DNA from: Nitrospirota bacterium
Lineage (GTDB): Bacteria; Nitrospirota; Thermodesulfovibrionia; Thermodesulfovibrionales; JdFR-86
Assembly: GCA_037386965.1 (NCBI GenBank)
Contig: JARRLN010000001.1
Span: 5,323 to 69,322, forward strand
Length of the DNA stretch: 64,000 nt
Reading direction: 5' to 3'
The notes below the pieces were generated by a model. It was given only the letters and a program-made list of their open reading frames with translations. It searched no databases and had not been told where the DNA came from. This document shows, piece after piece, positions 24,356 to 39,334 of the stretch; positions within the stretch are counted from its first letter, which is position 1, and every line of letters begins with the position of its first letter. A program made the translations under genes and the position numbers.

Positions 24356-25454
24356 ACATCCGCGGCGGATAGGAGACCCTGCCCTGGATAAGGATGTCTT
24401 CGCCGACCCGCCGCACCTGCAACCGGTCGAGGCGGCAGGCCTCGCCGAGGCGCCTGAAGGAGGAGCCGCCAACCGGGGTGAAAGCCGTCCTTCCCCCTAT
24501 GACCGTGGGGGCGACGAAGACCATCGCCTTGTCCACAATCTCCTCCTCGAAGGCCGAGGCGTTCAGGCTGGAGCCGGCCTCGATGAGCACGGAGACGATG
24601 TTCCGTCTGCCCAGCTCCTCGATGAGCCATCTCAGGCTCAGGCGTCCCTGGAAAAAGAGAAGCTCGATACCCCTCGTCTCGAGCCCGCGGGCCTTCTCGC
24701 CCCGGTTTCTCGTGACCAGGAGCGTGGGAGGCGGCGTGCGGAGCACCCGGGCGTCGGGAGAGACCTCGAGGTCCGGGTCCACGATGACGCGCAAGGGATC
24801 CTCCCCTCCCGGCACCCGGGCGGTGAGCTCCGGGTCGTCGGCCCGCACGGTGCCGATGCCGGTGAGGATGGCGTCCACCTCGTCCCGCACCCTGTGCACC
24901 AGCCGGCGGGCCGGCTCCCCGGTTATCCATTTGGATTCCCCCTCCGGCGTCGCTATCTTTCCGTCCAGGGTCATGGCGGTCTTCAGGATGACGAAGGGAA
25001 GCCCCGTGGTGATGAACTTCTCGTAGGCCTCGTTCAGGGCGCGGGCCTTCTCTTCGAGGAGGCCCGTTTGGACTTCTATGCCCGCCTCGCCGAGCTTGCG
25101 CACCCCTTCTCCGCGCACCCGGGGGTTGGGGTCCACCATGGCCACCACCACCCGGGCCACGCCCGCCCTGATAATGGCGTCGGCGCAGGGCGGGGTCTTC
25201 TTGTCCAGGTGGCTGCAGGGCTCGAGGGTGACATACAGGGTGGAGCCCCGGGCCCTCTGTCCGGCCTTCTCCAGGACCAGGGCCTCGGCGTGGGGCGAGC
25301 CGGCCCTCCTGTGGAAATCCTCCGCAACGACCTGCCCACCCCGGGTGAGAACGGCCCCCACCATGGGGTTGGGGCTCGTCCTGCCCCGGGCCCGGGCGGC
25401 CAGCCGGAGAGCCTTCCTCATGAGCAATTCGTCGCGCACGGTTAAGGATAACAC
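24312..25454 (-). CDS. ribD: Bifunctional riboflavin biosynthesis deaminase/reductase
   Basis: The CMP/dCMP deaminase zinc motifs are HAEALVL and PCSH...PPCADAI. A C-terminal RibD reductase domain follows. The 3' end overlaps convergent panD by 44 bp. Confidence 0.9.
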
Positions 25455-25469
25455 AGGGACATTCTGAGA

Positions 25470-25498
25470 TTGAAATATGCCGTGAATTCATATATATT
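25470..25498 (+). promoter_or_regulatory. Candidate sigma-70 promoter for thrS (TTGAAA-17 nt-TATATT)
   Basis: TTGAAA lies at 25470-25475 and TATATT at 25493-25498, with a 17-nt spacer. Both sit in the 44-bp divergent ribD/thrS gap. The -10 directly abuts the ATG at 25499. Confidence 0.4.
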
Positions 25499-27457
25499 AT
25501 GATGTTGCACCGAAAAGCGGTCGTTTCCCCTCCCCGTGGAGAGGGGCCCCAAGGAGGACCGGAGATTAAACTCATTTTCCCCGGCGGAGAGGTCCAGGCC
25601 GAGGACCTCTCACAGGCCGAAAAGGAGCTGAAGAAGGGAAAGGCCCTGGCGCTCAGGGCCGACGGTGAACTGTACGACCTGAGCGAGGTCTCCCGGCTGT
25701 CCGGGCGCGGGGCCGTGGAGGTCCTTACCTTCGAGAGCAAAGAGGGACGGGAGGTCTACCGCCACAGCACCGCCCACGTCATGGCCCATGCCGTCAAGGA
25801 GCTTTTCCCGGAGGCGAAGCTTGCCATCGGCCCGGCGACGGACGAGGGCTTCTATTACGATTTCGATATGGACCGCCCCTTCACGCCGGAGGACCTGGAG
25901 GCCATCGAGAAAAAGATGGCCCACCTCATCAAGCGGAATACCCCCTTTGTCCGGAAGGCCATGAAGAGGGAGGACGCCATCGGGCTTTTCGAGGAAAAGG
26001 GGGAGCCCTACAAGGTGGAGATCCTCCGGGAGATAGAAGACCGGGAGGTCTCCCTTTATGAAGAGGACGGCTTCATCGACCTGTGCCGGGGCCCCCACCT
26101 GCCCTCCACCGGAAGGGTGCAGGCCTTCAAGCTCCTGAGCATCGCCGGAGCCTACTGGAGGGGAGACGAGCACAACAGGATGCTTCAGCGCATCTACGGC
26201 ACCTCCTTCGCCGACAAGAAGGGACTGACGGAGTATCTGGAGTTCCTCGAACAGGTCAAGAAGCGCGACCACCGGAGGCTTGGCCGGGAGCTCGACCTCT
26301 TCAGCGTGAGCGAGGACATCGGCCCGGGGCTCATCCTCTGGCACCCCAGCGGGGCCATCATCCGGAAGACCATCGAGGACTTCTGGCGGGAGGAGCACCT
26401 GAAGGCCGACTACCAGATTCTCTACACCCCGCATATCGCGAAGCTCGACCTCTGGGGGCGGAGCGGACACCTGGACTTCTATAGCGAGAACATGTACTCC
26501 CCCATGGAGGTGGAAGGACAGCCCTATGAGGTGAAACCCATGAACTGTCCTTTCCACATCATGGTCTACAAGAGCTCCCTGAAGAGCTACCGGGACCTCC
26601 CCGTGCGGTTCGCCGAGCTGGGCACGGTCTACCGCTATGAGCGCTCCGGCGTCCTGCACGGGCTTCTCAGGGTGCGGGGGTTCACCCAGGACGACGCCCA
26701 TATCTTCATCCGGGAGGACCAGGCGGAAGAGGAGGTCCAGCGAGTCCTGGACTTCACCCTTTTCGTCCTGAGGACGTTCGGTTTCGAGGATTACGACATC
26801 TACCTCTCCACGCGGCCCGAAAAATACGTGGGCACAGGGGAGCACTGGGAGCTTGCCACCGGGGCCCTGGAGGCGGCTCTCCGCGACAAGGGCCTTCCCT
26901 ACGAGGTGGACCCGGGCGAGGGGGTCTTTTACGGGCCGAAGATAGACATCAAGGTCAAGGACTCCCTGGGGAGGGCCTGGCAGTGCAGCACCGTGCAGGT
27001 GGACTTCAACCTGCCGGAGCGTTTCGACGTCACCTACAGGGGGGCCGACGGCAAGGAGCACCGGCCCATCATGGTCCACCGGGCCCTGATGGGCTCCCTG
27101 GAGAGGTTCTTCGGCGTCCTCGTGGAGCACTATGCGGGGGCCTTTCCCCTCTGGCTCGCCCCCATGCAGGTGGAGATACTCACCATCGCGGACCGCCACG
27201 CGGAGTATGCCGGCGCTTTGGCCCGCTTTTTGAAGGGCCGGGGAGTGCGCGCCGCGCTCAGAGCGGAAAACGAGAAAATCGGCTATAAAATCAGGCAGGC
27301 CACTATCGCAAAGGTCCCGTATCTGGTTATAATAGGGGATAAGGAAGTGCAGGAAAACAAGGTTACCGTCAGGAAGCGGACCGGTGAGAACATCGGGCCG
27401 TTTTCGTTTGACGAGTTTTATTCCCTGCTTCGGGAAGAGATACAACTGAGGAGGTGA
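25499..27457 (+). CDS. thrS: Threonine--tRNA ligase (start codon uncertain, see findings)
   Basis: It has an N-terminal TGS domain ([10 protein letters not shown]...), the editing-domain motif [11 protein letters not shown], class II core motifs and a C-terminal anticodon-binding domain. The first 22 codons of the listed ORF have no ThrRS counterpart. Confidence 0.9.
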
Positions 27458-27470
27458 AGGCATAAGCAAG

Positions 27471-27962
27471 ATTACTCGAATAAACGAGAGAATACGGGTC
27501 CCGGAAGTCCGGCTGGTGGACGAGGAGTCCAAACAGGTCGGCATCGTGCCCACCAGGGAGGCCCTGAGGATAGCCAGGGAGAAGGACCTGGACCTTGTGG
27601 AAGTGGCCCCCGGCGCCAAGCCTCCTGTCTGCAAGATCATGGACTTCGGGAAATATAAATATCAGCAAAGCAAGAAGCAGGCGCAGAAGAAGGCGCCCGA
27701 GCTCAAGGAGGTCAAGCTCCGCCCCCGTATCGACGAGCACGACCTGCAGTTGAAGGTGCGCAACATCAAGAGGTTTCTCGACGCGGGGCACAAGGCCAAG
27801 GTCTCGATGTTCTTCAGGGGGCGCGAGAGGGCCCGTCCGGAGATGGGCATGAAGGTGTTCGATAGGGTCATGGAGCTTCTGGACGGCGATTACAACGTCA
27901 TACAGAAACCCAGACACGAAGGCAACAGCATCATCATGGTGCTGGCCCCTTCGTCCAAATAA
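27471..27962 (+). CDS. infC: Translation initiation factor IF-3, non-AUG (ATT) start
   Basis: The listed ORF (GTG 27516) lacks the conserved N-terminus. The frame is open from the TGA at 27447 and encodes I-T-R-INERIRVPEVRLVDEESKQVGIV from ATT 27471; ATA 27462 is an alternative. GGAGGTGAAGG lies upstream. Confidence 0.8.
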   Translation: MTRINERIRVPEVRLVDEESKQVGIVPTREALRIAREKDLDLVEVAPGAKPPVCKIMDFGKYKYQQSKKQAQKKAPELKEVKLRPRIDEHDLQLKVRNIKRFLDAGHKAKVSMFFRGRERARPEMGMKVFDRVMELLDGDYNVIQKPRHEGNSIIMVLAPSSK

Positions 27963-27977
27963 AGGAAGGAGGACGAA

Positions 27978-28172
27978 ATGCCGAAAGCGAAGACCCACAG
28001 GGGAGCGGCCAAGCGCTTTCGCCTGACGGGCAGCGGGAAGCTGAGGAGAAACAGGGCGTACAAGAGCCATATCCTCACTAAGAAAAGAGCGAAGCGGAAA
28101 AGGCGCCTGAGGCAGCCCGCCCTGGTCTCTGCGACCGAGGAGAAGGCCGTCCGCAAGCTCCTTCACCTGTAA
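27978..28172 (+). CDS. rpmI: 50S ribosomal protein L35
   Basis: [36 protein letters not shown], preceded by AAGGAAGGAGG. Confidence 0.9.
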
Positions 28173-28204
28173 GACGCCGATAGAAAGCGACCAAGGAGGA
28201 ATAG

Positions 28205-28564
28205 ATGCCACGGGCACGAGGGGGGTTCAAGACCCGCAGACGCAGAAAGAAAGTCTTAAGCAGGGCCAAGGGTTTTTACTCGGCGAAAAGCCGCAATTTC
28301 AGGAGTGCTACGGAAGCCGTGGACAAGGCCCTGCGCCATGCCTACGCCGACAGGAGGGCGAAGAAGCGCGAGTTCAGGTCCCTGTGGATAGCCCGCATCA
28401 ACGCCGCCGCACGCCAGGAGGGGCTGACCTACAGCCAGTTGATGAAGGGGCTCCGGGACTCCGAGATTCTCCTGAACAGGAAAGTCCTGGCCGACATGGC
28501 CTACCGCGACCCCGAGGCCTTCCGGGCCCTCGTGGGCACCGCCAGGGAGAAGCTCGCGTCCTGA
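28205..28564 (+). CDS. rplT: 50S ribosomal protein L20
   Basis: [35 protein letters not shown]...[14 protein letters not shown]. Confidence 0.9.
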
Positions 28565-29574
28565 TGAACCTGACCGCCCTCAGGGAGGAGTTCGGACAGG
28601 ACATACGGCAAGCCCACTCGACGCAGGACCTGGAGAGGCTCCGGGTCAAGTATCTCGGGAAGAAGGGCCTGGTGACCGAGCAGTTCAAGCTGCTGGCCGA
28701 GATGCCGCCCGGGGAGAAGAAGGCCTTCGGCAAGGGGGTCAACGACCTGAAGACCCTCGTCGCGGAGGAAATCTCCTCCCGCAAAGTGCAGCTCAAGGAC
28801 AAGGAGCTCGGTGAGAAGCTCCTGGCCGAGAGCGTGGATATCACCCTGCCGGGCAAGTATCGGCCTTACGGCCGGGAGCATCCCGTCAACCAGACCATGA
28901 ACGAGATCATCGGGATATTCTCGAGCATGGGCTTCGGCGTGGAGGAAGGCCCGGAGGTGGAGACGGACTACTATAACTTCGAAGCCTTGAACATCCCCAA
29001 GGACCACCCCGCCCGGGACATGCAGGACACCTTCTACATCAGCGACGAGGTGGTTCTCCGCACGCACACCTCTCCTGTGCAGGTACGGGTCATGGAGCGG
29101 AGCACCCCTCCCCTGAGGTTCATCGCCCCCGGAAAGGTTTACCGCTGCGACGCCGACATCTCCCATACGCCGATGTTCCATCAGGTGGAGGGCCTGATGG
29201 TGGGCGCCGACATTTCCTTCAGCCACCTGAAGGGCGTCCTGGAGGCCTTCGTTCATGCCTTCTTCGGGCCGGAGGTGCCGGTGCGGTTCCGCCCGAGCTT
29301 CTTCCCCTTCACCGAGCCCTCCGCGGAGGTGGACATCGGGTGCACCTTCTGCCGGGGCCGCGGCTGTCGGGTCTGCAAGGCCTCGGGGTGGATAGAAATC
29401 CTGGGGGCCGGCATGGTCAACCCCAGGGTCTTCGAAATGGTGGGCTACGACCCGGAGCAGTACACCGGCTTTGCCTTCGGCATGGGGGTGGAGCGCATCG
29501 CCATGCTCAGCTTCTCGGTGGACGACATCCGCCTGTTTTACGAAAACGACGTCCGCTTCCTCGGGCAGTTCTAA
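28564..29574 (+). CDS. pheS: Phenylalanine--tRNA ligase alpha subunit
   Basis: ATG at 28564 overlaps the rplT stop (TGATG) and gives [10 protein letters not shown]...LERLRVKYLGKKG. Class II motifs are present (FRPSFFPFTEPSAEVD, GMGVERIAML). The listed start at 28384 is an extension running through rplT. Confidence 0.9.
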   Translation: MNLTALREEFGQDIRQAHSTQDLERLRVKYLGKKGLVTEQFKLLAEMPPGEKKAFGKGVNDLKTLVAEEISSRKVQLKDKELGEKLLAESVDITLPGKYRPYGREHPVNQTMNEIIGIFSSMGFGVEEGPEVETDYYNFEALNIPKDHPARDMQDTFYISDEVVLRTHTSPVQVRVMERSTPPLRFIAPGKVYRCDADISHTPMFHQVEGLMVGADISFSHLKGVLEAFVHAFFGPEVPVRFRPSFFPFTEPSAEVDIGCTFCRGRGCRVCKASGWIEILGAGMVNPRVFEMVGYDPEQYTGFAFGMGVERIAMLSFSVDDIRLFYENDVRFLGQF

Positions 29575-30470
29575 AGGCCCGCGCCCCTCGCGGAGCCCCC
29601 GACGCGCACGAAGCACTCCTTCACCGTAAGGCCGTCCCTCCCGACATATCCCCCGGCCATGTACTTCGTCGTGTGGATGATGGCCGGCCTTCCCCTCGCG
29701 TCAATGGCGATGACCCCGCCCTCGCCGCCCATGCGGGTAAGCCTGGTGAGCGAGCGCGCTGCGGCCTCGCGCAGGGTCAGGAGGAAAAGGCTCATGCATA
29801 TTTCCTTGCCCAGGCAAAGGCGCAGGATGTGCTCGCCGGAGCCCGTGCAGGCCACCGCACCCAGGGCGTTCTCGGCATAAACCCCGGCGCCCACGATGGG
29901 GGTGTCGCCTACCCGGCCGGGGAGCATCGCCGCGACCCCGCCCGTCGATGCCGCGGCCGCAAGGTCGCCCCTCCCGTCCCGGGCCACAGCCCCCACGGTG
30001 GAGAAGTATTTCTCGTACAGCTCCATGAAGTCCCTGTTCCGTCTCGCCTTCTGCAGGCTCTCTCTGGCCCTTTCGACCGGCGGGGGGAGCGGTGCAAGCC
30101 CCTCGGCGCGGGCCATGGCGGCGGCCCCTTCTCCCGCAAGCATTGTGTTGGGCAGGTCCATGGCCCGCCGGGCGGCAAAAACGGGGTTTCTGAAACCCTG
30201 AAGGCCGATGACGGAACCGGCCCTAAGCCCGCGGCCTTCCATGACGGAGGCGTCCAGCCTCCGGAGGCCGTCGGCCTGGAGGTTGGCCCCGGCCCCGGCG
30301 TTAAACTCCCCGGAGTTCTCCATGAGGGCAATGGTCCTGGTGACGGCATCGAGGGCGGCCCCCCCGGCTTTGAGGATGTCCCAGCCCTCCCGAAGAGCCT
30401 CCGACAGCGCCTGTAAGGCTGCCCCGGAGGGCCTCTTCTCCCCCGCTCCACCGTGGACCATGAAGACCAT
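29571..30470 (-). CDS. Isoaspartyl peptidase / L-asparaginase (Ntn hydrolase, asparaginase_2 family)
   Basis: It starts VHGGAGE and has the autoprocessing nucleophile context (STVGAVARDGRGDLAAAASTGG). Its 3' end overlaps pheS by 4 bp (convergent). Confidence 0.85.
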   Translation of the reverse strand: MVFMVHGGAGEKRPSGAALQALSEALREGWDILKAGGAALDAVTRTIALMENSGEFNAGAGANLQADGLRRLDASVMEGRGLRAGSVIGLQGFRNPVFAARRAMDLPNTMLAGEGAAAMARAEGLAPLPPPVERARESLQKARRNRDFMELYEKYFSTVGAVARDGRGDLAAAASTGGVAAMLPGRVGDTPIVGAGVYAENALGAVACTGSGEHILRLCLGKEICMSLFLLTLREAAARSLTRLTRMGGEGGVIAIDARGRPAIIHTTKYMAGGYVGRDGLTVKECFVRVGGSARGAGL

Positions 30471-30807
30471 GCACGCTCCTCCTCATCTTCATCCTACTAC
30501 AGGGATTCACGCGGGGGAACGGCACTCCGCATATGTCTTCCCGTTTGTCTCACATTAGAAAGATTAAGCCCTATCTGTTACTGATTGTAATCCTTCCCAT
30601 AGACCGTTAAGAATTCCATAATCTTCTGTCGGAATTATTTGCAAAAATACACCCCAAGATAAGCAAGGATTCAGAAATCCCCATAAAAACAATGCTTTTA
30701 TATAAGGCATATATTTTGCTTTTACAAAATTTCAAGGGGATGTGGTCATCTAATTAAGACAGAGAGGAGGGCGTCAAGGAATCCTTGCGGGACAGGCACC
30801 TGTAAAA

Positions 30808-30822
30808 GGGCACGAATATTGC
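30808..30822 (+). promoter_or_regulatory. Sigma-54 promoter (-24/-12) of the PEP-CTERM beta-propeller gene
   Basis: The site reads GGGCAC-GAATA-TTGC. The GG (30809-30810) and GC (30821-30822) are separated by exactly 10 nt. It lies about 40 bp upstream of the ATG at 30862, and AAGGAGG sits between the two. Confidence 0.6.
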
Positions 30823-30861
30823 CTGCTCGATTCTTAATAAGACCAGCGAAAGGAGGTCTCC

Positions 30862-31851
30862 ATGAGAAGAGTCGCTATCATAGCGACGTTGTTCATGTTG
30901 TTAGCATGGACGGGCATTGCCTCGGCCCTGCCGTACACACAGGGAAACGTTTTCGTATCCCTCCGGGACGGGACGGTCCAAGAGTACACCCCCACCGGAA
31001 CCCTGGTGCAGACCCTCAGCACGCCTTCATCTGGGGAGTTGACGGGTTCGGCCTTCGATTCGAGCGGCAACTTTTATGTGACAGCAGGGTTCTCGCTACA
31101 ACCCGCAGGTGGTATTTACAAATTCGATTCCAGCGGCAACCTGGTGTCGCCCTCCCCATTTTTCACGAACCCTTCTGTCAATGGCTCGACCAATGAATCT
31201 ATCCTGTTCAACATAGCCGGGATGGCACTGTCGGGGACGGCCGACGGAGACAGAACTGTCAACCTGTTTGATCCCAGTACGGGTGGAAATCCTGTCACCC
31301 AGTACAGTGTCGCGACGCAGGACCGGGGGAGCGACTGGATCGATCTTGCAGCCGACCAGACGACCCTCTACTACACCTCAGAGGGCTCCAGGATTCTCAG
31401 GTACGACCTCGACACCAGCACGCAACTGACAGATTTCACCAACGAGGGGTTTAACCTGTTTGCCCTCAGGCTTCTTTCAAGCGGGGGGATTCTGGCCGCC
31501 GACACTAATAAGGTCCTTCGGTTCGACAGCAGCGGGAACGTTGCGCAGACGTACCTGCCCGGTTCCGGCTTGCTCTTCGCCCTGAATCTCGACCCGGATG
31601 GCACCTCCTTCTGGACCGCGGAATATTATACAGGCGACATATACAATATCGACATCGCCACCGGCACCATCCTTAACCAATTTGATATCGACCAGGGAAT
31701 CAGCGGACTGTCGGTCTACGGCGAGATAACCCAAGGCGGCGGCGGCGGAGGAGGAGGGGGTGGAGAGCCCATTCCCGAGCCTTCCACACTATTTCTTCTC
31801 GGCAGCGGGTTCCTGGGGCTTGCGGCGTTCAGAAGGCGATTCAGAAGATAG
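30862..31851 (+). CDS. Secreted beta-propeller-like repeat protein with Gly10 linker and C-terminal PEP-CTERM sorting signal
   Basis: It has a signal peptide (MRRVAIIATLFMLLAWTGIASA). Repeated blade motifs occur (AFDSSGNFYV, KFDSSGNLV, RFDSSGNVAQ, LDPDGTSFW). The C-terminus reads GGGGGGGGGG-EPIPEPSTLFLLGSGFLGLAAFRRRFRR, i.e. PEP motif, TM helix and Arg cluster. Confidence 0.8.
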   Translation: MRRVAIIATLFMLLAWTGIASALPYTQGNVFVSLRDGTVQEYTPTGTLVQTLSTPSSGELTGSAFDSSGNFYVTAGFSLQPAGGIYKFDSSGNLVSPSPFFTNPSVNGSTNESILFNIAGMALSGTADGDRTVNLFDPSTGGNPVTQYSVATQDRGSDWIDLAADQTTLYYTSEGSRILRYDLDTSTQLTDFTNEGFNLFALRLLSSGGILAADTNKVLRFDSSGNVAQTYLPGSGLLFALNLDPDGTSFWTAEYYTGDIYNIDIATGTILNQFDIDQGISGLSVYGEITQGGGGGGGGGGEPIPEPSTLFLLGSGFLGLAAFRRRFRR

Positions 31852-31901
31852 GCAGCATTATGTGACATCCGCGACTTCTGGTACACTGGCGTGATCGCCA
31901 T

Positions 31902-31953
31902 AGGGCGCTCCTCCTGTTAATAGTCTAACGACATTGGATGGGAGGAGCGCCCT
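31902..31953 (+). terminator. Long-loop hairpin downstream of the beta-propeller gene (possible terminator)
   Basis: There is a perfect 13-bp inverted repeat, AGGGCGCTCCTCC (31902-31914) / GGAGGAGCGCCCT (31941-31953). The loop is 26 nt and the hairpin is followed by TCTTTAT. Confidence 0.45.
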
Positions 31954-32174
31954 TCTTTATCCCCGCTTCAATTTCACCTAATCACCTGACGGCTGTAATT
32001 CGCATGAGCTTGTTTTTCACTCAGAAAGATGCCAGTGCCATAAGGTGGGTGTCTTTAGAGACATGAGAATTAAGTTTGGTCGCCGCTACTGTGCCTTCTT
32101 TTTGGAAGGCCTCCACATCTCTTCCTCCTGGCGACACGCCCCCCTCCGCCATCTGCCGGTTGCCCAGTGGTTGT

Positions 32175-32201
32175 TAAAAAAGGCCCCTCTGAAAGGGGCC
32201 T
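32175..32201 (-). terminator. Rho-independent terminator on the minus strand, just outside the left tRNA-derived repeat
   Basis: The stem is AGGCCCCT/AGGGGCCT with a 5-nt loop (32181-32201). On the minus strand the hairpin is followed by TTTTTTAA. Confidence 0.6.
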
Positions 32202-32230
32202 TTGGAAAAAGTAACTTTTTTATGAAGTTG

Positions 32231-32251
32231 TGGCGCGCCCAGGAGGATTCG
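32231..32251 (-). repeat. Partial duplicate (21 nt) of the tRNA-Arg(ACG) 3' end; putative distal att site
   Basis: TGGCGCGCCCAGGAGGATTCG is identical to 36084-36104 and in the same orientation. Confidence 0.85.
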
Positions 32252-32360
32252 GTATCAAGGTGACACTGAGCTGGTGGAAGGCGGCCGGAGTCTGACCGGC
32301 AAACTCCCATCTATCCGCTCTTTACCGAAGGGCAATCCTTGTTCTGTAAGGATCGGCTGT

Positions 32361-34178
32361 TCAGGGAAGACGTTTGAGGAGTCTTTCCGCTTCCTTCGCC
32401 TCTTTGAAATCCCGAGAGATCGAGAGAGCCTTCTCTACGCTGCGCCGTGCGGCCTCCGCGTTGCCCGAGGCCCGGTACGCCTCGGCTAGGTGATAAAGGA
32501 TGGTTGGGCTATTCGGCGACAGAGAGGTCGACTTCTCGAGTGTATCCAGGGCTTCCTTTGTCCTGCCAAGCTTGAACAGAACCCATCCAAGGGTATCAAG
32601 AATCATGGCGTTTTCGCCCGCCGAGGAGGCGGCCCTCCGCGCCATCATCAGGGCTTGGTCGTTGTCCCCTCTTTCAAGCTCTAGCATCGCCAGGTTGTTG
32701 AGGGCGTACACATGCTGGGGATCATTTGCAATGATATCCCGATACATCTTTAGTGCACGGAGTTTGTCCCCCGCGTCCTGGTAGAGGGCGGCAAGGTAAA
32801 ACATGTCATCGGGATTATCGGGGCTGGCCTTCCGGAGCTGTTCTGCGGCCTCGATTGCCTTTTTCAGGTCGCCTTTCCGTACGTACGTTACGCTCAGGGC
32901 CTTGAGAATCAGCGGCTCACTCGGGGCAAGCGAGAGAGCTTTGCCAAGTTCATCGAGTGCAATATCGTATTTCTTGACATAACCGTAAAAGAGGCCAAGT
33001 TCGTAAAAAGACAAGGGTGAGTCCGGAAACCTCCGGGACATTTCCTTGAATGTCTCTTCGGCGAGGTCCATCTGGCCAATCATCTGATACGTTGAGCCGA
33101 GCAAGTCGTAAATTTCAATACCCGCGTTCCCGGAGCCCACTATTTCAGTGTAAATCTTTATCGCTTCTGCGGGTTTTTCCTCGCGGAGGTACACATCTGC
33201 AATCCTCTTCCGGGCAAAAAGTGGATCAGGGCTTAGGTCTGCGGCCCGCTTGTAGCACCGCAGCGCTTCTTCGTATCGTCCCATCGCAAAGAGCGTCTCT
33301 CCAAGCTGGTAATGTCCGACAGACCACTCAGGCTTTATCTCTGTTACTTTCTGTAGTTCCGCGAGGGATTCCTGGTATTTCCCCTTTTCCCTATATGCCA
33401 TCCCTAGCGGAAGGCGGGCCCTCTCCGTGTCGGGTTCGAGTTTGAGGGCGGTCTTAAAATGGTCAATGGCTTCGTTCACCCTGTCCGTGTTCAGATAAGC
33501 GGAGCCAAGCACGATATGCGCCGTGGCACCACCTTTATCTCTGGTAATGAGTCCCTCAAGCAGCGCAATGGTCTTTTCGTACATCCTCGAAAGGTTATAG
33601 AGCCGCCCCAGGTTTACCTTGACTCCTACATACTCGGGTGGTGTCCCCCTTATGCCTTTTCCATAATGTTCGACGGCCTGCTGATACTTACCTTCGTCCT
33701 CGTATATCAGCCCGAGCCTTTGGTGGGCTCTCCGGTTTTGAGGATTTATCTTGATGGCCTGGAGGAATTTCTCTTTAGCTTTCTTCTGTTGGCCCTGCGC
33801 CATATAGATGTCGCCTATCTTGGTGATGGCTGAATCCGCGGAAGGGTCCAGTTCAACGGCCCTTTTAAGGGCCTTGAGACCTTCGTCAACCTGTCCCTTC
33901 ATGACCAACGCGGCCCCGAGGATTTCCTGGGCGGGGGCAGAGCCGGGGTCGTCTTTCAGCACTTCCCGGACCTTCTTGATTGCAGCATCGTATCGACCAT
34001 GGTTCAGAAGGGCAAGGGCCTCAGCCAGAGACTTCTGCCCAGGAAGAACCTGTATCTGTTCGGGGGTTATGTCGATTACCGGGAAGGCCTGAGAAACCGC
34101 GATGTCAAATGTCAGGGATGCAATCGCCCCCGCGACAAACATGCACAACCAGAATAATGCTCTCCTCGTCATTTTCAA
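32361..34178 (-). CDS. Secreted or membrane-anchored tetratricopeptide (TPR) repeat protein
   Basis: The N-terminus is hydrophobic (MKMTRRALFWLCMFVAGAIASL). More than 12 tandem 34-aa TPR-like units follow (recurrent A..Y...G....A...F..AL..dP). It is 605 aa. Confidence 0.85.
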   Translation of the reverse strand: MKMTRRALFWLCMFVAGAIASLTFDIAVSQAFPVIDITPEQIQVLPGQKSLAEALALLNHGRYDAAIKKVREVLKDDPGSAPAQEILGAALVMKGQVDEGLKALKRAVELDPSADSAITKIGDIYMAQGQQKKAKEKFLQAIKINPQNRRAHQRLGLIYEDEGKYQQAVEHYGKGIRGTPPEYVGVKVNLGRLYNLSRMYEKTIALLEGLITRDKGGATAHIVLGSAYLNTDRVNEAIDHFKTALKLEPDTERARLPLGMAYREKGKYQESLAELQKVTEIKPEWSVGHYQLGETLFAMGRYEEALRCYKRAADLSPDPLFARKRIADVYLREEKPAEAIKIYTEIVGSGNAGIEIYDLLGSTYQMIGQMDLAEETFKEMSRRFPDSPLSFYELGLFYGYVKKYDIALDELGKALSLAPSEPLILKALSVTYVRKGDLKKAIEAAEQLRKASPDNPDDMFYLAALYQDAGDKLRALKMYRDIIANDPQHVYALNNLAMLELERGDNDQALMMARRAASSAGENAMILDTLGWVLFKLGRTKEALDTLEKSTSLSPNSPTILYHLAEAYRASGNAEAARRSVEKALSISRDFKEAKEAERLLKRLP

Positions 34179-34284
34179 CCCCCTGCCTTTTCAATAGACC
34201 GTCTTTTAAATTATCTCGAAGTCCAGGAAAAAATCAACGAAATGAATGCATCACCGGCAAACAGGGGGTCCGGCTTGAGCGGGG

Positions 34285-34320
34285 AAAAAGCAGGCACGGG
34301 TAATTGACCCGTGCCTGCTC
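34285..34320 (-). terminator. Rho-independent terminator of the vWA/PEP-CTERM gene
   Basis: The stem is GCAGGCACGGG/CCCGTGCCTGC with a 7-nt loop. On the minus strand it is followed by TTTTT, 16 bp after the stop at 34336. Confidence 0.65.
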
Positions 34321-34335
34321 GCCTTGATGTTCAAT

Positions 34336-35451
34336 TTACTTCCCGAACTTCATACTTCTCACACCGACAAGACCTAAAAGACCGACTCCCACCAGCAGAA
34401 AAGTTGCAGGCTCCGGCACGGCGGCTGCTGCGCCACCCACCGTAAATCTGTCGCTTTCTATGGCAACAATGCCCCCGTCAACGAGCGCATCAATGCTGAA
34501 AGCATGCGTTCCGGCTTCAAGACCGGTAAAGGTTACATCAAAGGCAAACGTCATGTCGGTGTCACGCGAGAAGTCACCCAGATAAGACGTAGGGCTTATG
34601 GAGACGCCTACGCCCGGCAGGTTGCCATCCGCCATCAGGGACACCTCGCTATAGGACGCAAAGACGGACGCCAGGGCGTCATCGATCACGGTGACGATCT
34701 CACCCGAAGTCACACCGCTGAACAGGTCGCCTCCGGTGGCGTCGGTGATGGCAGTCGCCTGACCGGTAGAGTTCAAACCTCCCAGGTCGATTGCCTCCAC
34801 AACAACATTCTCCGCAGTGAGAGAACCGATGGCGTCAGAAAGCCCTATATCGGATGGATATGAGGCCTCCAGGTCCCCGTCATGCCCCGGAGCATCGCCG
34901 AACCAGACGACTATCTTTGTAGCGTCGTCCCGCCAACTGGTCGTGGTGGCCACTTGGTCAAGCGCATAAAGGTTGGCCTCAGGAGTGTCGCCGCCACTGC
35001 CAGCGACTGCGTCCAGCGAACCGATTGCGCTTTGCGCTGCGGTGGCGTCCGTCGTGATATCCTGGACCAGCTCGTAGGCTACATCGCCCGGGAGGCCGTA
35101 AGGAGACACCGGAAAATCCTCGTAGTCGCCCACGCCGAACGCCACGTCCCCCAGCCCCGAGGCATTTGAGAGAATCGTGGAGGCGTTGGTCTGCGCGGAG
35201 GATATCAGTGGAGCCATGCTTCCCGTGGTGTCAAACAGGAAGAAGACGTCCACCTTTGCCGTTGTGACGTCCGAGGTTACGGTCACCGTCTTTTCAACGG
35301 TGAGGCTCTCACCCACATCGATAGACGCTGAAACCGAAGCCGGGCTGATGGTGTCCGCTAATGCGACGTACGGCAATGCCAGAAGAAGCGCAACACAGAG
35401 GGTGAGCAAAAGCTGCACCTTTCTTCCCATTGCTACTTTTGGTCCTTTCAT
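34336..35451 (-). CDS. Secreted von Willebrand factor A (vWA) domain protein with C-terminal PEP-CTERM sorting signal
   Basis: It has a signal peptide (VQLLLTLCVALLLALPYVALA). The MIDAS-like motif is DVFFLFDTTGSM, with ...GGDTPE and VVWFGDAPGHD further on. The C-terminus reads AAAAVPEPATFLLVGVGLLGLVGVRSMKFGK. GGAGGTG lies 7 nt upstream of the ATG. Confidence 0.85.
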   Translation of the reverse strand: MKGPKVAMGRKVQLLLTLCVALLLALPYVALADTISPASVSASIDVGESLTVEKTVTVTSDVTTAKVDVFFLFDTTGSMAPLISSAQTNASTILSNASGLGDVAFGVGDYEDFPVSPYGLPGDVAYELVQDITTDATAAQSAIGSLDAVAGSGGDTPEANLYALDQVATTTSWRDDATKIVVWFGDAPGHDGDLEASYPSDIGLSDAIGSLTAENVVVEAIDLGGLNSTGQATAITDATGGDLFSGVTSGEIVTVIDDALASVFASYSEVSLMADGNLPGVGVSISPTSYLGDFSRDTDMTFAFDVTFTGLEAGTHAFSIDALVDGGIVAIESDRFTVGGAAAAVPEPATFLLVGVGLLGLVGVRSMKFGK

Positions 35452-35507
35452 TTCTTTTCACCTCCCTTCCAGGTTTTTCGGTTTATCGGGAATCGGACCG
35501 ATTACAA

Positions 35508-35522
35508 GCAAAAGACGTGCCC
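35508..35522 (-). promoter_or_regulatory. Sigma-54 promoter (-24/-12) of the vWA/PEP-CTERM gene
   Basis: The minus strand reads GGGCAC-GTCTT-TTGC, the same form as the 30808 site. The -12 element lies about 57 bp upstream of the ATG at 35451. Confidence 0.6.
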
Positions 35523-36083
35523 ATTTAGAACATCCGGATTTTAAATGATAGTTTTCTCAACGTCTGTGGGCTAAACTATCTTTTGTAAAATCCTCCGACA
35601 CAAAATTCGAGAAAGTTTACATATCATAGGCCGTATGAATGATGGTCATAATTCGTTAATGGTAGGTGCAGCTTGAGATGCGAATCTGTTGGGAAACCAT
35701 GACATTCACGATAGGAAATCCCGCAACCAGGCGGAACCGGACATTGAGCACCTCAGAGTACCTTTTTCGGAGGGCGCAAGGTAGTCAACGTTATCCCAGA
35801 CTTGATGCAGGTCCATAACCGGAGAAAGCGGCGCGACGGTGCCGGTCCGTGCGCCACCAGCCGGGAGTTTTCAGCCATGCGCCGTATGTCGGCTCTCGCA
35901 TTTTCGAAGGTACGACGTGGTCAGTGGGTCAGACCTCGGGGCCGCCTCAGAGAGGCTGACGGATGTGCATCGGGAAGCACAAGAAGTCCTCGAACGGAAA
36001 GGAGATGGGCAATTTCGAACACACGAAACAAGCACAAAGGGCTCCCGCAAAGATGACCGGAAGCCCGCAAGTGCTTGAAAATA

Positions 36084-36160
36084 TGGCGCGCCCAGGAGGA
36101 TTCGAACCCCCGACACTCGGATTCGTAGTCCGATGCTCTATCCGGCTGAGCTATGGGCGC
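36084..36160 (-). tRNA. tRNA-Arg (anticodon ACG), CCA encoded
   Basis: Manual cloverleaf: acceptor GCGCCCA/TGGGCGC, D stem GCTC/GAGC, anticodon stem TCGGA/TCCGA with loop CTACGAA, T loop TTCGAAT, discriminator G, then CCA. Confidence 0.9.
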
Positions 36161-36197
36161 AGACGGAAGGAGGGGCTCCGAAGGCCCCCTCCTCTGT

Positions 36198-36701
36198 TTA
36201 GCTTGTGGCCTTGATGCCCTCCTTCAGGGTCAGGGCGTACGTATCATGCTCGAAGGGGTGGATGGCCGGGAACTTCGAGTACAGCCATCCGGTGAATATC
36301 TGCTTGTCACCCTCGAACACATCAACATGCACCGCCGGGTTGTTCAGCTCGTTTGAGGCCGATGTAATGGTCGACCCGCTCATCTTGAAGTCGGGAAGGA
36401 ATTGCCCGACTTCGATCTTCAGGTTCGAGCCCGGGATGGCGTATTCTCCCTCCAGCGGAATGGTGACTTCGTCGGACTTCTTGGTCGTCTTGTTTTCGAT
36501 AACCAACGTGACCGCCTTCCACTTCCCTGCAACCGATTCGGGGACGACTATCTGCGTCTGCACGGGAGGCATAACGCCATGCGGAGAAGCGGCCTCCCCG
36601 CCCGGCTGGCCCGGCTTCGTAATCGGTTCCTCCTTCTGCTTGCACCCCACGAAAGCAAAGACCACGACAAGAGCCGCCAACAGCACCAGAAGTTTTCTCA
36701 T
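36198..36701 (-). CDS. Putative lipoprotein of unknown function
   Basis: ATG 36701 gives MRKLLVLLAALVVVFAFVGCKQ, a signal peptide with a lipobox Cys. The listed ORF start (36833) would run through tRNA-Ser and is rejected. Confidence 0.7.
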   Translation of the reverse strand: MRKLLVLLAALVVVFAFVGCKQKEEPITKPGQPGGEAASPHGVMPPVQTQIVVPESVAGKWKAVTLVIENKTTKKSDEVTIPLEGEYAIPGSNLKIEVGQFLPDFKMSGSTITSASNELNNPAVHVDVFEGDKQIFTGWLYSKFPAIHPFEHDTYALTLKEGIKATS

Positions 36702-36745
36702 TCGCCTTCCTCCTGTATAGGTTGCACGCCATGAAGTCCATACGC

Positions 36746-36839
36746 TGGCGGAGAGGCAGGGATTCGAACCCTGGGTGAGGCTTTTGACCCCACAACCGCT
36801 TAGCAGGCGGCTGCCTTCAGCCAGCTCGGCCACCTCTCC
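36746..36839 (-). tRNA. tRNA-Ser (anticodon GCT), long variable arm, CCA encoded
   Basis: Manual cloverleaf: acceptor GGAGAGG/CCTCTCC, anticodon stem GCCGC/GCGGT with loop CTGCTAA, long variable arm, T loop TTCGAAT, then G-CCA. Confidence 0.9.
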
Positions 36840-36894
36840 TCATTGACCTTTTATGTTATCAGGTATGCGCGCGCTTTGTAAAGGGACGCACGGT

Positions 36895-36923
36895 TTGCGG
36901 AGCCCAAAAAAATTTAGTAAAAT
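36895..36923 (+). promoter_or_regulatory. Candidate sigma-70 promoter of nifS (TTGCGG-17 nt-TAAAAT)
   Basis: TTGCGG lies at 36895-36900 and TAAAAT at 36918-36923. The ATG follows 11 nt downstream with no Shine-Dalgarno. Confidence 0.35.
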
Positions 36924-36934
36924 AAAGTCCTTCC

Positions 36935-38059
36935 ATGATCTACCTGGACCACAACGCGACCACTCCGGTAGAGCCGGAAGTGGCGGAGGCCATGGCGGAA
37001 GCCCAGAGGGAGGGCTTCGGAAATCCTTCGAGCTGCCACCTCCCCGGGGTCCGGGCGCGCCAGTTCGTGGAAACGGCCCGCTCCCGGGTCGCCGGGCTTC
37101 TCGGAGCACGGCAGGAGGAGATTTATTTTACCTCCGGGGGCACCGAGTCCAACAACCTTGCCATCCTGGGCCTTGCGCGCCGTCGTCCGAAAGGGCACAT
37201 CGTCACCTCGGCCGTGGAACACCCCTCCGTAACCCAGGCCGTCCGCCACCTTCTCTCTCAGGGTTTTCAGGCCACCCTCGTCGGGGTGGACGGCGACGGA
37301 CGCGTGAAGGTGGATGAGGTGGAGCGGGCCATACGGGACGACACGGTGCTCATCACCGTCATGCACTCCAACAACGAGACCGGCGTGCTCCAGCCCATCG
37401 AGGATATAGCGCGTCTGGCCCGGAGCCGCAAGGTCCCCTTCCACACAGACGCCGCCCAGTCCGTGGGAAAGGTGCCCGTGAGCGCGGAGGCCTGTGACAT
37501 GCTTACCGTGGCCGGCCACAAACTCTACGGGCCCAAGGGTGTCGGGGCGCTGTACGTGCGAAGGGGCATCGCCCTGGAGCCCATCCTCTTCGGGGCCGGA
37601 CACGAGAAGGGGCTCCGCCCGGGGACGGAGAACGTTTCCGGGGTGGTGGGTCTCGGTGTGGCCTGCGAGCTTGCGGGCCGGGAGCGAGAGGCCCGGGGAC
37701 GCCATGTGGAGGCATTGGCGGAGAGGTTCCTTTCGGGCCTCAGGCGGAACGTCTCCGCCCTCCGCCTGAACGGCCACCCTGCCCTCAGGCTTCCGGGGAC
37801 CCTGAATCTCTGCTGCCCCGGTGTGGATTCCACCTCCCTGACCGCCGCCCTGGGGGACCGGATAGCCATGTCTTCGGGCTCCGCGTGCCACGCGGGGGAG
37901 AGGAAGCCCTCGGCCGTGCTCATGGCCATGGGCGTTTCGGAGGACGAGGCGCTCTCCTCGGTAAGGTTCAGCCTCGGGAAGGACAACACGGAAGAAGAGA
38001 TGGACCGGGCCGTCAGGATACTTTCAGAGACCCTTGCTCCACCGGCCCCAGCACGGTAA
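36935..38059 (+). CDS. nifS: Cysteine desulfurase (NifS/IscS class V aminotransferase)
   Basis: It starts MIYLDHNATTP. Motifs are TSGGTESNN, HSNNETGVLQPI, the PLP lysine in GHKLYGPKGVGALYVR, and the catalytic Cys loop SSGSACHAG. Confidence 0.9.
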   Translation: MIYLDHNATTPVEPEVAEAMAEAQREGFGNPSSCHLPGVRARQFVETARSRVAGLLGARQEEIYFTSGGTESNNLAILGLARRRPKGHIVTSAVEHPSVTQAVRHLLSQGFQATLVGVDGDGRVKVDEVERAIRDDTVLITVMHSNNETGVLQPIEDIARLARSRKVPFHTDAAQSVGKVPVSAEACDMLTVAGHKLYGPKGVGALYVRRGIALEPILFGAGHEKGLRPGTENVSGVVGLGVACELAGREREARGRHVEALAERFLSGLRRNVSALRLNGHPALRLPGTLNLCCPGVDSTSLTAALGDRIAMSSGSACHAGERKPSAVLMAMGVSEDEALSSVRFSLGKDNTEEEMDRAVRILSETLAPPAPAR

Positions 38060-39254
38060 GGGCGACCTCCCCATCGGAGGCGAGCCGCCCTGCCAGGTGC
38101 CGCACCTCTTCGAGGGTGACGGCGTCTATCTTTTTCAGTATCTCCCCGGGAGAGTAGTACCGGCCGTAGTATATCTGCTGTATGGCGATGTTCTGCATCC
38201 TCCTGCTCGTGGACTCGAGGCCGAGGATGAGGTTTCCCTTCACCTGCGCCTTCGCCCGCTCAAGCTCCTGCTTCGTCACGGTCTGGGCAAGGGACCGGAA
38301 CTCCCGGGCCGTGTGCTCCACGACCTCCTGGGCGTGCTCCTCTCCCGTGCCGGCGTAAACCCCCCAGAGCCCCGTGTCCCCGTACATGGAGAGAAACGAG
38401 TAGACGGAGTACGCCAGTCCCCGCTTCTCCCGGATTTCCTGGAAGAGGCGGGAGCTGACCCCTCCGCCCAGTATGGTGTTCAGCAGAAGGAGGTGATATC
38501 TCTCTTCGCTGGGTTGGGGAAGAGCCTTGACGCCCATGCAGATGTGCACTTCGGAGAGGTCCTTTTCATGGACTGATTCCCGCGGGCGGAAGACGGGCAA
38601 AGCGCCGGTTTGGGGCTTCGGGCCCAGCCCGATTCCATCCAGCGCCCTGTTGAGGTTCTCCATAAGGGCGTCCTCGTCGAAGTGCCCGGCGCAGGCCACA
38701 ACGATGTTTCCGGTGCCATAGGAGTTCTTGATGTGCTCCAGGATGTTCTCGCGGGAAAAGCCACCCACGGTATCCCTGGTGCCCAGGACCGCCTGGCCCA
38801 GGCCGTCCTCGCCCCAGACGGAGCGGTTGAAGAGGTCGTGCACGTAGTCGTCGGGGGTGTCCTCCACCATCTTTATCTCCTCCCCCACGACGCTCTTCTC
38901 GCGCTCGATTTCCTCCTCCGGGAAGGTCGACCCCAAAAAGATGTCCCCCAGAAGCTCTACCCCCCGGCCGAGGTACTCGTCCAGCACCTTCACGTAAAAA
39001 GTCGTACTCTCCTTGGAGGTGAAGGCGTTGAGCTCCCCGCCCAGGGAGTCCATGTCCACGGCTATGTCAAGGGCGGTGCGCTTCTCCGTCCCCTTGAAGA
39101 ACATGTGCTCAAGGAAATGGGATATCCCGTTTCTCTCGCGCGGTTCGTGGCGAGAGCCCACCTGCACCCAGATGCCCAGCGCCACGGAGCGGACGTTTCG
39201 AATCTGCTCCATCACCACGAGCACGCCGTTATCCAGTGCTTTCTTGCTGAACAT
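38013..39254 (-). CDS. M16 family zinc metallopeptidase (pitrilysin/insulinase-like)
   Basis: It has the inverted zinc motif HFLEH (GISHFLEHMFFKGTEKR) and a downstream Glu. It is 413 aa. The 3' end overlaps convergent nifS by 47 bp. Confidence 0.85.
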   Translation of the reverse strand: MFSKKALDNGVLVVMEQIRNVRSVALGIWVQVGSRHEPRERNGISHFLEHMFFKGTEKRTALDIAVDMDSLGGELNAFTSKESTTFYVKVLDEYLGRGVELLGDIFLGSTFPEEEIEREKSVVGEEIKMVEDTPDDYVHDLFNRSVWGEDGLGQAVLGTRDTVGGFSRENILEHIKNSYGTGNIVVACAGHFDEDALMENLNRALDGIGLGPKPQTGALPVFRPRESVHEKDLSEVHICMGVKALPQPSEERYHLLLLNTILGGGVSSRLFQEIREKRGLAYSVYSFLSMYGDTGLWGVYAGTGEEHAQEVVEHTAREFRSLAQTVTKQELERAKAQVKGNLILGLESTSRRMQNIAIQQIYYGRYYSPGEILKKIDAVTLEEVRHLAGRLASDGEVALTVLGPVEQGSLKVS

Positions 39255-39334
39255 GTATACCCGCTGACTAGGAAAAAGGGGGACGTACGCCCCCCTTATT
39301 GTAGGTGTACCGGACGCCGGAAGTCAGGGCCTTC

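Follow-up and report, generated by a model that had tools for sequence, protein, structure and literature searches.

A strain-variable tRNA-Arg cassette carrying an integrin-beta-like PEP-CTERM protein and its TPR partner in a Nitrospirota bacterium

Introduction

Proteins of the PEP-CTERM/exosortase (EpsH/XrtA) system carry an N-terminal signal peptide and end in a PEP motif followed by a helix and then a basic tail, and their genes have large non-coding leaders. In the survey by Haft (2006), EpsH homologues were present whenever PEP-CTERM domains were, and proteobacterial PEP-CTERM genes were preceded by a PEP-CTERM box, in which a 17-nt motif ending in TTTACA is separated by a spacer of 62.8 ± 10.6 nt from a sigma-54 -24/-12 element (PMC1569441). 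That element lay a mean of 71 nt (range, 23 to 221 nt) from the start codon, and the phylogenetic profile of the box matched PrsK, PrsR, and PrsT (PMC1569441). Here we analyze a stretch of 64,000 nt (the window; positions 5,323 to 69,322 of contig JARRLN010000001.1, assembly GCA_037386965.1) from a metagenome-assembled genome (MAG) of a Nitrospirota bacterium, on which we found no literature. It encodes two PEP-CTERM proteins, a beta-propeller and a von Willebrand factor A (vWA) protein, with a tetratricopeptide repeat (TPR) protein encoded between them. The vWA and TPR genes lie on a 3.8-kb cassette at the 3' end of a tRNA-Arg gene, and the vWA protein is a predicted homologue of the integrin-beta headpiece.

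The bacterial relatives of integrin beta that we found in the literature are one cyanobacterial protein and CglD of Myxococcus. The latter is integrin-beta-like and was found experimentally to be an adhesin and traction factor (bioRxiv 10.1101/2023.10.19.562135). An integrin-beta-like protein of Trichodesmium, cited in PMC3192720, has no membrane segment. These two proteins and SibA of Dictyostelium are located at the surface or exported, and they contain a betaI-like vWA domain and a MIDAS (metal ion-dependent adhesion site), features that they share with the vWA protein of the window. We found nothing in the literature that joins PEP-CTERM sorting or a TPR partner with integrin-like proteins.

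Results and discussion

The vWA and TPR genes form a strain-variable cassette in tRNA-Arg(ACG)

The locus comprises the following features, listed by position in the window.

30862-31851, plus strand: propeller PEP-CTERM gene, 329 aa; resident, outside the cassette
32231-32251: left copy of the direct repeat, TGGCGCGCCCAGGAGGATTCG, which partly duplicates the tRNA-Arg(ACG) 3' end; attR-like
32252-36083: cassette of 3,832 bp; holds the genes for the TPR and vWA proteins and a non-coding leader of 632 bp; no integrase
32361-34178, minus strand: TPR gene, 605 aa from a TTG start
32361-34172, minus strand: the same gene from the ATG at 34172, 603 aa; the start chosen by gene callers
34336-35451, minus strand: vWA PEP-CTERM gene, 371 aa
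36084-36160, minus strand: tRNA-Arg(ACG), target of the integration; the right direct repeat, attL-like, is formed by the last 21 nt at its 3' end (36084-36104)

All three open reading frames (ORFs) are where the first-pass annotation, made from the sequence alone, had placed them, and the C termini quoted there are correct. The ATG start of the TPR gene is preceded by AGGGGG, a Shine-Dalgarno-like sequence. Read by eye, the propeller, vWA, and TPR proteins each begin with a signal peptide. NCBI labels the two PEP-CTERM proteins as "PEP-CTERM sorting domain-containing protein" and "VWA domain-containing protein" and gives nothing more specific.

The boundaries of the cassette are defined by a 21-nt repeat, TGGCGCGCCCAGGAGGATTCG, which occurs in two exact copies (32231-32251 and 36084-36104) and in none of the shuffled sequences. 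The second copy is the 3' end of the minus-strand tRNA-Arg(ACG), including CCA. The locus had been described as tRNA-linked; with this repeat of the tRNA 3' end, the link is stronger than was claimed.

A sibling population lacks the cassette. Its 132-kb contig (L023; Joint Genome Institute 3300057030) was found by exact look-up of the DUF2155 protein encoded beside the tRNA, and it has the gene order DUF2155, propeller, peptidase, with the vWA and TPR genes missing. By BLASTN, L023 is 99.0% identical to window positions 24337-32251 and 99.4% identical to 36084-44701; it has one copy of the repeat, and 32252-36083 is absent. Because the two matches overlap by exactly the 21 nt of the repeat, we consider L023 a clean empty site, and because the propeller gene is retained there, that gene lies outside the cassette. 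The segment 32252-36083 has the anatomy of a site-specifically integrated, strain-variable element. The proposal that all three genes arrived as one acquired module did not hold: only the TPR and vWA genes lie between the repeats and are missing from the sibling, and both strains have the propeller gene.

Base composition sets the locus apart from its surroundings. The G+C content at third codon positions (GC3) is 0.63 to 0.69 in the propeller, TPR, and vWA genes versus 0.81 to 0.89 in the flanking genes; the two cassette genes, at 0.63 to 0.64, look foreign.

The cassette resembles tRNA-borne genomic islands and CIMEs, the latter being integrase-less cis-mobilizable elements of Streptococcus thermophilus. 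Like these, it is inserted at a tRNA 3' end, has a direct repeat that regenerates the tRNA, is present or absent depending on the strain, with a clean empty site, is foreign in composition, and has no recombinase of its own. It differs from these in its very small size (two genes in 3.8 kb) and in having no detectable integrase or integrase relic, no conjugation or phage genes nearby, and no relatives in viral contigs. A phage vehicle for the cassette was considered and dropped, since no relatives of the vWA family were found in viral contigs.

Short contigs of other samples, from metagenomes or the SRA (L026, L028, and L029), end about 100 to 220 bp beyond the DUF2155 gene, near the position of the tRNA-Arg. 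These ends are consistent with branching of the assembly graph where both alleles coexist in one sample.

To the left of the cassette only, the window and L023 diverge by 2.4 to 4.8% per 500 bp over positions 30000-31500, against a background of about 0.2 to 0.8%. The asparaginase gene (its 5' part), the intergenic region, and the propeller gene fall within this stretch; in the last of these, 18 nucleotide changes give 10 amino acid changes. The one-sided divergence suggests that recombinational exchange or diversifying selection has acted near the insertion site. A synteny scan with the flanking asparaginase as the query returned one Nitrospirota contig, 56% identical and non-syntenic, which was of no help in dating the insertion.

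The vWA protein is a predicted integrin-beta headpiece homologue

The vWA protein is predicted to consist of a signal peptide, a hybrid-like beta-sandwich (residues 34 to 58 and 266 to 339), a betaI/vWA domain inserted into that sandwich (residues 65 to 265), and a PEP-CTERM segment that starts at P346. An AlphaFold2 model built with 31 homologues had a predicted local distance difference test (pLDDT) score of 88.1 and a predicted TM-score (pTM) of 0.77 and placed a C-terminal helix at residues 348 to 369. The best 50 Foldseek matches of this model in the PDB were all integrin beta chains, with E values of about 1e-19 over about 365 columns. TM-scores ranged from 0.47 to 0.61 and were highest (0.59 to 0.61) for open integrin headpieces. 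A profile of the family agreed at the sequence level, as 60 of 60 matches among PDB sequences were integrin beta (best E value, 2.5e-12) and the alignment spanned the N-terminal hybrid strands, the betaI domain, and the C-terminal half of the hybrid domain, corresponding to beta6 residues 83 to 377. The vWA domain passes the Pfam family VWA_4 (PF25106; 30.3 bits, gathering score 27), and many of its homologues have precomputed matches to Integrin_beta (PF00362).

Based on profile and model, we regard the vWA protein as a homologue of the integrin-beta headpiece with a betaI domain inserted in a hybrid-like sandwich. The first-pass annotation had described a vWA domain with an Ig-like C-terminal region; the vWA domain stands, and the region around it is more specifically of integrin-beta headpiece architecture.

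The MIDAS is complete (D74, T76, S78, E158, and D186). Across 31 family members, the residues D74, S78, E158, and D186 do not vary, and T76 shows at least 90% conservation. Three family motifs have counterparts in integrin beta6: DxTGSM corresponds to DLSASM, GGDxPE to DTPEGG, and WRxDS..WFGDAPGH to WRNDS..FVSDADSH. The window protein and eukaryotic integrin-beta headpieces, such as beta3 (3ZE2) and beta6 (5NEM), have in common the insertion of betaI into a beta-sandwich, the WR(x)DS...DA..H motif, and the residues of the MIDAS (DxT/SxS, E in DxPE, and D in FxxDA); in both, one helix at the C terminus carries a short basic tail. The window protein is unlike integrin beta in having no PSI domain, EGF repeats, beta-tail domain, or NPxY tail, as it ends in the PEP-CTERM segment after the sandwich, and in having no acidic pair of the ADMIDAS (the site adjacent to the MIDAS): there is no DD pair, as the stretch at the MIDAS serine reads SMAPL here and SMGG in the family consensus. 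Its partner is a TPR protein and not an alpha subunit with an FG-GAP propeller, its C terminus is an exosortase signal, and its sequence identity to integrin beta is about 17 to 20%.

Compared with CglD, a 1,130-aa Cys-rich lipoprotein with COMP/EGF modules that works with the Glt machinery, and with the Trichodesmium protein and SibA, members of this family are compact (about 360 aa), PEP-CTERM anchored, and TPR paired. Some of them match the SibA-type Pfam family vWA_SIBA-E (PF24909). When counted against a library of 50%-identity cluster representatives, the family had 1,104 representatives at E ≤ 1e-30, and named sources of its members are Desulfobacterales, Myxococcota, and Desulfobulbaceae. 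The closest sampled homologue is 61 to 64% identical to the window protein, and no donor was seen.

One homologue that matches vWA_SIBA-E (P0074) is encoded inside an exopolysaccharide biosynthesis cluster (L111, 1-21080) with genes for a flippase, Wzy, a glycosyltransferase, and a sulfotransferase. In that cluster, a gene for a 1,241-aa protein follows P0074 in the place of the TPR partner.

The TPR protein is a predicted conserved partner of the vWA protein

We surveyed the neighborhoods of vWA homologues in 80 metagenome loci, the window, and two further loci, L019 and L020 (83 loci in total), of which 43 were informative; a TPR gene was scored as lacking only where at least 900 bp of downstream sequence was available. 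In 31 of the 43 informative loci, among them the window, the gene immediately downstream of the vWA gene, at a distance of -3 to 300 bp, was a TPR gene. Clustering over the 83 loci returned TPR as the sole recurrent neighbor family, and every TPR partner starts with a signal peptide. In L019 and in L020 (whose vWA protein is assigned by NCBI to a Desulfobacterales MAG), the vWA homologues are 61% and 53% identical to the window protein, respectively. In both loci, the next gene on that strand encodes a protein of about 600 aa, and these two proteins share 48% and 51% identity with the window TPR protein over its full length. Pairwise identities of vWA and TPR proteins correlate (r = 0.44), with 7 of 5,000 Mantel permutations reaching that value.

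The first-pass annotation had likened the TPR protein to PrsT, and PrsT (TIGR02917) is indeed its top NCBIfam match. The score is 272.4 bits versus a cutoff of 312.2, and the best stretch covers positions 305 to 666 of the 899 in the profile. The N terminus, MTRRALFWLCMFVAGAIASLTFDIAVSQA, read directly from the sequence, has no lipobox and has F-W-L before the Cys. The protein is like PrsT in its TPR solenoid, its N-terminal export signal, and its genomic association with PEP-CTERM genes. It is unlike PrsT in its length (603 aa versus a profile of about 899 positions), in lacking a lipobox Cys, and in being tied to one cargo family and not to regulator genes. Judged by sequence and gene order, it is best described as the conserved partner of the vWA gene and not as PrsT.

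Two other TPR families were considered. The protein scores 220 bits against the magnetosome protein MamA (cutoff, 200), but this total adds up the scores of four stretches on a profile of 204 positions, and we therefore dismissed it as a repeat artifact that does not indicate a magnetosome gene. The match to a BatC-type TPR family is weak (83 bits; cutoff, 175).

The surroundings of some homologous pairs contain other genes. Following the pair in L020 (13352-19640) are small ORFs, one with a type IV pilin N_methyl signal, and then a 1,060-aa pyrroloquinoline quinone (PQQ)-type propeller and a further PEP-CTERM protein, with toxin-antitoxin genes and transposase fragments nearby. Toxin-antitoxin or rve genes also adjoin the pair in L019 and L110.

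Both PEP-CTERM genes have a PEP-CTERM box

Two PEP-CTERM proteins had been claimed, and the Pfam family PF07589 bears this out, with 29.7 bits for the propeller and 28.5 bits for the vWA protein (gathering score, 20.7). A six-frame scan of the 64 kb found no other PEP-CTERM-like tails. On TIGR02595 (cutoff, 16), the model proposed for checking these tails, the propeller passes with 23.5 bits and the vWA protein falls just short. Within the vWA family, P346, E347, and P348 of the PEP motif are invariant or nearly so. These sequence data support both proteins as bona fide PEP-CTERM cargo.

As had been stated, there is no exosortase in the window. None appeared among the Pfam hits of called genes in positions 1-64000 or in the 7 to 10 kb beyond each end, and the one large ORF without annotation (46522-47928) has no NCBIfam match. 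An exosortase is not a recurrent neighbor of the vWA homologues in the clustering of the 83 loci. Among multi-transmembrane ORFs near the homologues, 10 of 12 translations were read by eye (no hidden Markov model search was run), and these appeared transporter-, TatC-, or NuoM-like and not exosortase-like.

Upstream of the two genes, we identified the following elements.

30627-30643, plus strand: PEP-CTERM box motif 1, TGTCGGAATTATTTGCA, putative enhancer-binding-protein site of the propeller gene; ends in TTTGCA
30705-30720, plus strand: sigma-54 -24/-12 element, AGGCATATATTTTGCT, 61 nt past motif 1 and 141 nt from the propeller ATG
30808-30823: weaker second sigma-54 candidate, GGGCACGAATATTGCC, in the propeller upstream region
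35507-35522, minus strand: sigma-54 -24/-12 element, GGGCACGTCTTTTGCT, in the cassette, 55 nt before the vWA ATG
35584-35600, minus strand: PEP-CTERM box motif 1, TGTCGGAGGATTTTACA, in the cassette, 61 nt before the sigma-54 element

These agree with the published box (PMC1569441): a 17-nt motif ending in TTT(A/G)CA, a spacer of 61 nt compared with a mean of 62.8, and distances of 55 and 141 nt to the ATG, within the published 23 to 221. The GG and GC dinucleotides of AGGCATATATTTTGCT are correctly spaced. The window contains two exact matches to TGTCGG-N5-TTTRCA and two to the composite pattern TGTCG-N6-TTTRCA-N(50-75)-GGCAY-N5-TTGC, compared with none in 100 shuffles, and each composite box has the correct strand for the PEP-CTERM gene that it precedes, in non-coding leaders of 391 bp (propeller) and 632 bp (vWA). 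L023 keeps the box of the propeller gene. It is the composite box only that is specific; sigma-54-like hexadecamers by themselves are at chance level across the window (20 versus 22 expected).

The box recurs in the vWA family. Sigma-54 elements with up to two mismatches were found upstream of vWA homologues in 15 of 60 loci and in 0 of 60 in each of two controls. The full box was present in 8 of 58, with none in the reverse-complement control and 0 in 1,160 shuffles, and motif 1 is conserved among the homologues as TGTCGG-N5-TTTACA.

The locus differs from the described PEP-CTERM systems in several respects. The host is a member of the Nitrospirota, whereas the 2006 report of the box concerned Proteobacteria only (PMC1569441). 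The vWA gene is paired with a TPR gene instead of forming a single-gene operon, its box is on a mobile cassette, and the contig stretch examined has no exosortase, PrsK, or above-cutoff PrsR.

A sigma-54/PrsR theme had been anticipated, and it applies, in that both genes have a complete box. The window encodes two NtrC-type sigma-54 activators (regions 7871-9914, minus strand, and 15994-17364, plus strand), which score 436.6 and 434.9 bits against the PrsR model TIGR02915, both below its cutoff of 502.6; for the regulator at 8568-9914 (436.6 bits), PrsR is the top NCBIfam match. Beside that regulator is a truncated-looking histidine kinase fragment of 238 aa, which is not PrsK (TIGR02916, 59.3 bits; cutoff, 300). 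The two NtrC-type regulators are candidate activators of both boxes.

In one metagenome locus, L064, the TPR partner gene is closely followed by a second, complete PEP-CTERM box (4491-4582, plus strand), which presumably drives another cargo gene.

The resident propeller belongs to a common cargo family

The propeller protein has, in order, a signal peptide, a six-bladed beta-propeller, a Gly10 linker, and the PEP-CTERM tail. The six-blade-like propeller proposed from the sequence is borne out by the AlphaFold2 model (pLDDT, 88.8), in which 23 strands assigned by DSSP fit six four-stranded blades, and its matches in the PDB are generic propellers. The Pfam family SGL (PF08450; SMP-30/gluconolactonase/LRE-like) matches residues 27 to 75 only, with 22.3 bits against a gathering score of 26.3. 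There are more than 1,200 homologues, many with PEP-CTERM and SGL (PF08450) matches; named sources include Burkholderiales, Thiohalobacter, and Motiliproteus. The family is a common one among PEP-CTERM cargo, and the propeller protein is an ordinary member of it.

No propeller homologue adjoined a vWA homologue in the 82 other loci, and the one propeller homologue whose context was examined (P0123) has neither a vWA nor a TPR partner. A pairing of propeller and vWA protein resembling that of integrin alpha and beta subunits was considered and ruled out, as the propeller remains where the cassette is absent and the two are never adjacent elsewhere. The run of ten glycines just before the PEP-CTERM motif (31770-31800; residues 288 to 297) has the same length in both strains.

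Proposed organization of the locus and alternatives

The reading that we favor, with somewhat better than even confidence, is that the locus holds two independent exosortase-cargo units: the resident propeller and a tRNA-inserted accessory cassette with an integrin-beta-like/TPR pair and its own box. The data show four parts of it: an insertion/absence polymorphism whose boundaries are exact, a gene pair that is conserved, homology to integrin beta, and two PEP-CTERM boxes. The first unit would be the six-bladed propeller with its PEP-CTERM tail, driven by its own PEP-CTERM box. The second would be an integrase-less cassette at the 3' end of tRNA-Arg(ACG) that some strains have and others do not, whose cargo is a multi-phylum gene pair encoding a compact integrin-beta headpiece homologue and then a TPR protein of about 600 aa with a signal peptide. 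As the cassette brings its own PEP-CTERM-box promoter, it could plug into a PrsR-type/sigma-54 regulon of the host. That both strains have the box at the resident propeller gene indirectly suggests that the host has a matching regulator and, by association, an exosortase system.

Under this proposal, transcription would depend on sigma-54 and a PrsR-like activator. Following the PEP-CTERM/exosortase model, both PEP-CTERM proteins would be exported through Sec and retained at the inner membrane by the C-terminal helix, and then cleaved and transferred by an exosortase encoded elsewhere for display on the envelope or in the matrix. As in integrin and vWA biochemistry, the MIDAS head may bind an acidic ligand in a metal-dependent manner, for example, a matrix polysaccharide, a protein, or a mineral surface. 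The TPR protein, predicted to be periplasmic, may be a dedicated chaperone, scaffold, or co-receptor of the vWA protein. Integration and excision could be due to a tyrosine integrase acting in trans or to an integrase that has since been lost. The cassette likely provides a regulated, exosortase-dependent surface adhesin.

Several observations weigh against this proposal. About 84 kb of the contig contains no exosortase, no PrsK, and no PrsR above cutoff. On TIGR02595, the vWA protein scores 14.2 bits, 1.8 below the cutoff, and on Integrin_beta (PF00362) it scores 21.2 bits, under the gathering score of 24.8. Twelve of the 43 informative loci are without a TPR gene, nine of them with much longer vWA ORFs (576 to 914 codons) of a different architecture, and the mirror-tree correlation is modest. 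The leader (35452-36083) has no ORF for an integrase or its relic, and its nine stop-free six-frame pieces (45 to 102 aa) have no Pfam match at E values up to 10. Finally, the polymorphism may have originated by excision in L023 and not by insertion in the window strain.

This last point leads to the alternative that survives best, which we consider possible but doubtful: the cassette is ancestral, was lost in the L023 lineage by recombination between the 21-bp repeats, and is an old, decaying island that is no longer mobile. A precise deletion between the repeats would yield an identical empty-site sequence, the cassette has no integrase or relic, and the nearest sampled vWA homologue is just 61 to 64% identical, with no donor seen. 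Even so, the duplication of the tRNA end still needs an original site-specific integration, the composition of the cassette is still strongly foreign, and the divergence confined to the left flank (2.4 to 4.8% over 30 to 31.5 kb, compared with about 0.5%) suggests exchange around the site.

A broader form of the two-unit proposal would make the vWA proteins an undescribed large lineage of prokaryotic integrin-beta headpieces (at least 1,100 clusters at 50% identity), each with hybrid and betaI domains and one C-terminal helix. They would act as heteromeric receptors for metal-dependent adhesion, with TPR replacing the alpha subunit, and would spread across phyla as integrase-less, tRNA-targeting two-gene cassettes with their own PrsR/sigma-54 box. 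We offer this as a tentative extension and consider it rather unlikely in its full scope.

It is also conceivable, though quite improbable in our view, that the PEP-CTERM tails are plain membrane anchors like the integrin transmembrane segment, that the genome has no exosortase, and that both proteins and the TPR protein stay at the inner membrane facing the periplasm. The lack of an exosortase in about 84 kb would fit, as would the vWA tail being slightly under the TIGR02595 cutoff and the arrangement of head, single helix, and short basic tail, which recalls integrin beta. This reading has to contend with the near invariance of P346-E347-P348 across the family and with the box on both genes, whose profile matched PrsK, PrsR, and PrsT in EpsH-containing proteobacteria, where EpsH homologues always accompanied PEP-CTERM domains (PMC1569441).

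Very unlikely, to our mind, is the reading from which the analysis started, a single horizontally acquired, tRNA-linked islet of propeller, PrsT-like TPR protein, and vWA protein with an exosortase elsewhere. It would account for a GC3 below that of the neighbors in all three genes, for the passing of PEP-CTERM models by both cargo proteins, for PrsT as the top NCBIfam match, and for the adjoining tRNA genes. The repeats and the gap in the sibling strain, however, enclose TPR and vWA only and leave the propeller in place, propeller and vWA genes are adjacent in 0 of 82 other loci (and the P0123 context has neither partner), and the TPR protein is under the PrsT cutoff with partial profile coverage and no lipoprotein signal.

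In Bat operons, vWA and TPR proteins co-occur. We give almost no credence to a Bat/aerotolerance- or MoxR-type system here, that is, an intracellular or periplasmic chaperone-like complex and not an adhesin, since that co-occurrence and the weak BatC-type match (83 versus 175 bits) are set against a vWA domain that resembles integrin beta in particular and comes with a hybrid domain, a signal peptide, and PEP-CTERM, against TPR as the only recurrent neighbor, and against the absence of a MoxR AAA+ or DUF58 gene beside the pair in the window and in annotated homologue contexts.

Two things in this locus go beyond the routine: a mobile cassette that carries a PEP-CTERM box of its own, and the pairing of an integrin-beta-like protein with a TPR protein. 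If the two-unit proposal is correct, the occupied and empty alleles would be a clean natural case of exosortase-cargo exchange, in which a recipient with PrsR/sigma-54/exosortase machinery could regulate and sort the cassette's cargo at once. The pair, an integrin-beta-like MIDAS head with a TPR protein, would be widespread and unannotated and, in environmental anaerobes, a concrete candidate for a role in adhesion to matrix or surfaces. A compact bacterial hybrid and betaI unit with a C-terminal helix would inform the origin of the integrin-beta headpiece, and the broader reading of an undescribed lineage, if true, would bear on the prokaryotic ancestry of that headpiece.

Neighboring genes and minor features

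Both flanks of the locus are made up of housekeeping genes. One has thrS-infC-rpmI-rplT-pheS and an isoaspartyl peptidase gene, and the other has tRNA-Arg(ACG), the DUF2155 gene, tRNA-Ser, genes for a cysteine desulfurase and an M16 peptidase, and pnp. An Rfam scan of 29500-37500 at E values up to 1 found the two tRNAs and nothing else. Between the propeller gene and the left repeat is one further element, a consensus match only:

32184-32197, minus strand: terminator-like GC hairpin with T-runs on each side

The DUF2155 gene (36198-36701, minus strand) is lipoprotein-like, lies between tRNA-Arg(ACG) and tRNA-Ser(GCT), and is common to both strains. Its GC3 of 0.73 falls between those of host genes and cassette, and it has no NCBIfam match.

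The ORF at 46522-47928 (plus strand) encodes 468 aa and lies between a dihydrolipoamide dehydrogenase-like gene and the enolase gene. Its GC3 of 0.85 is host-like, and there is no recorded Pfam match. Just upstream of the window (L113, 1-6584) are genes for carbon monoxide dehydrogenase/acetyl-CoA synthase of the Wood-Ljungdahl pathway, which point to an anaerobic lifestyle of this Nitrospirota lineage.

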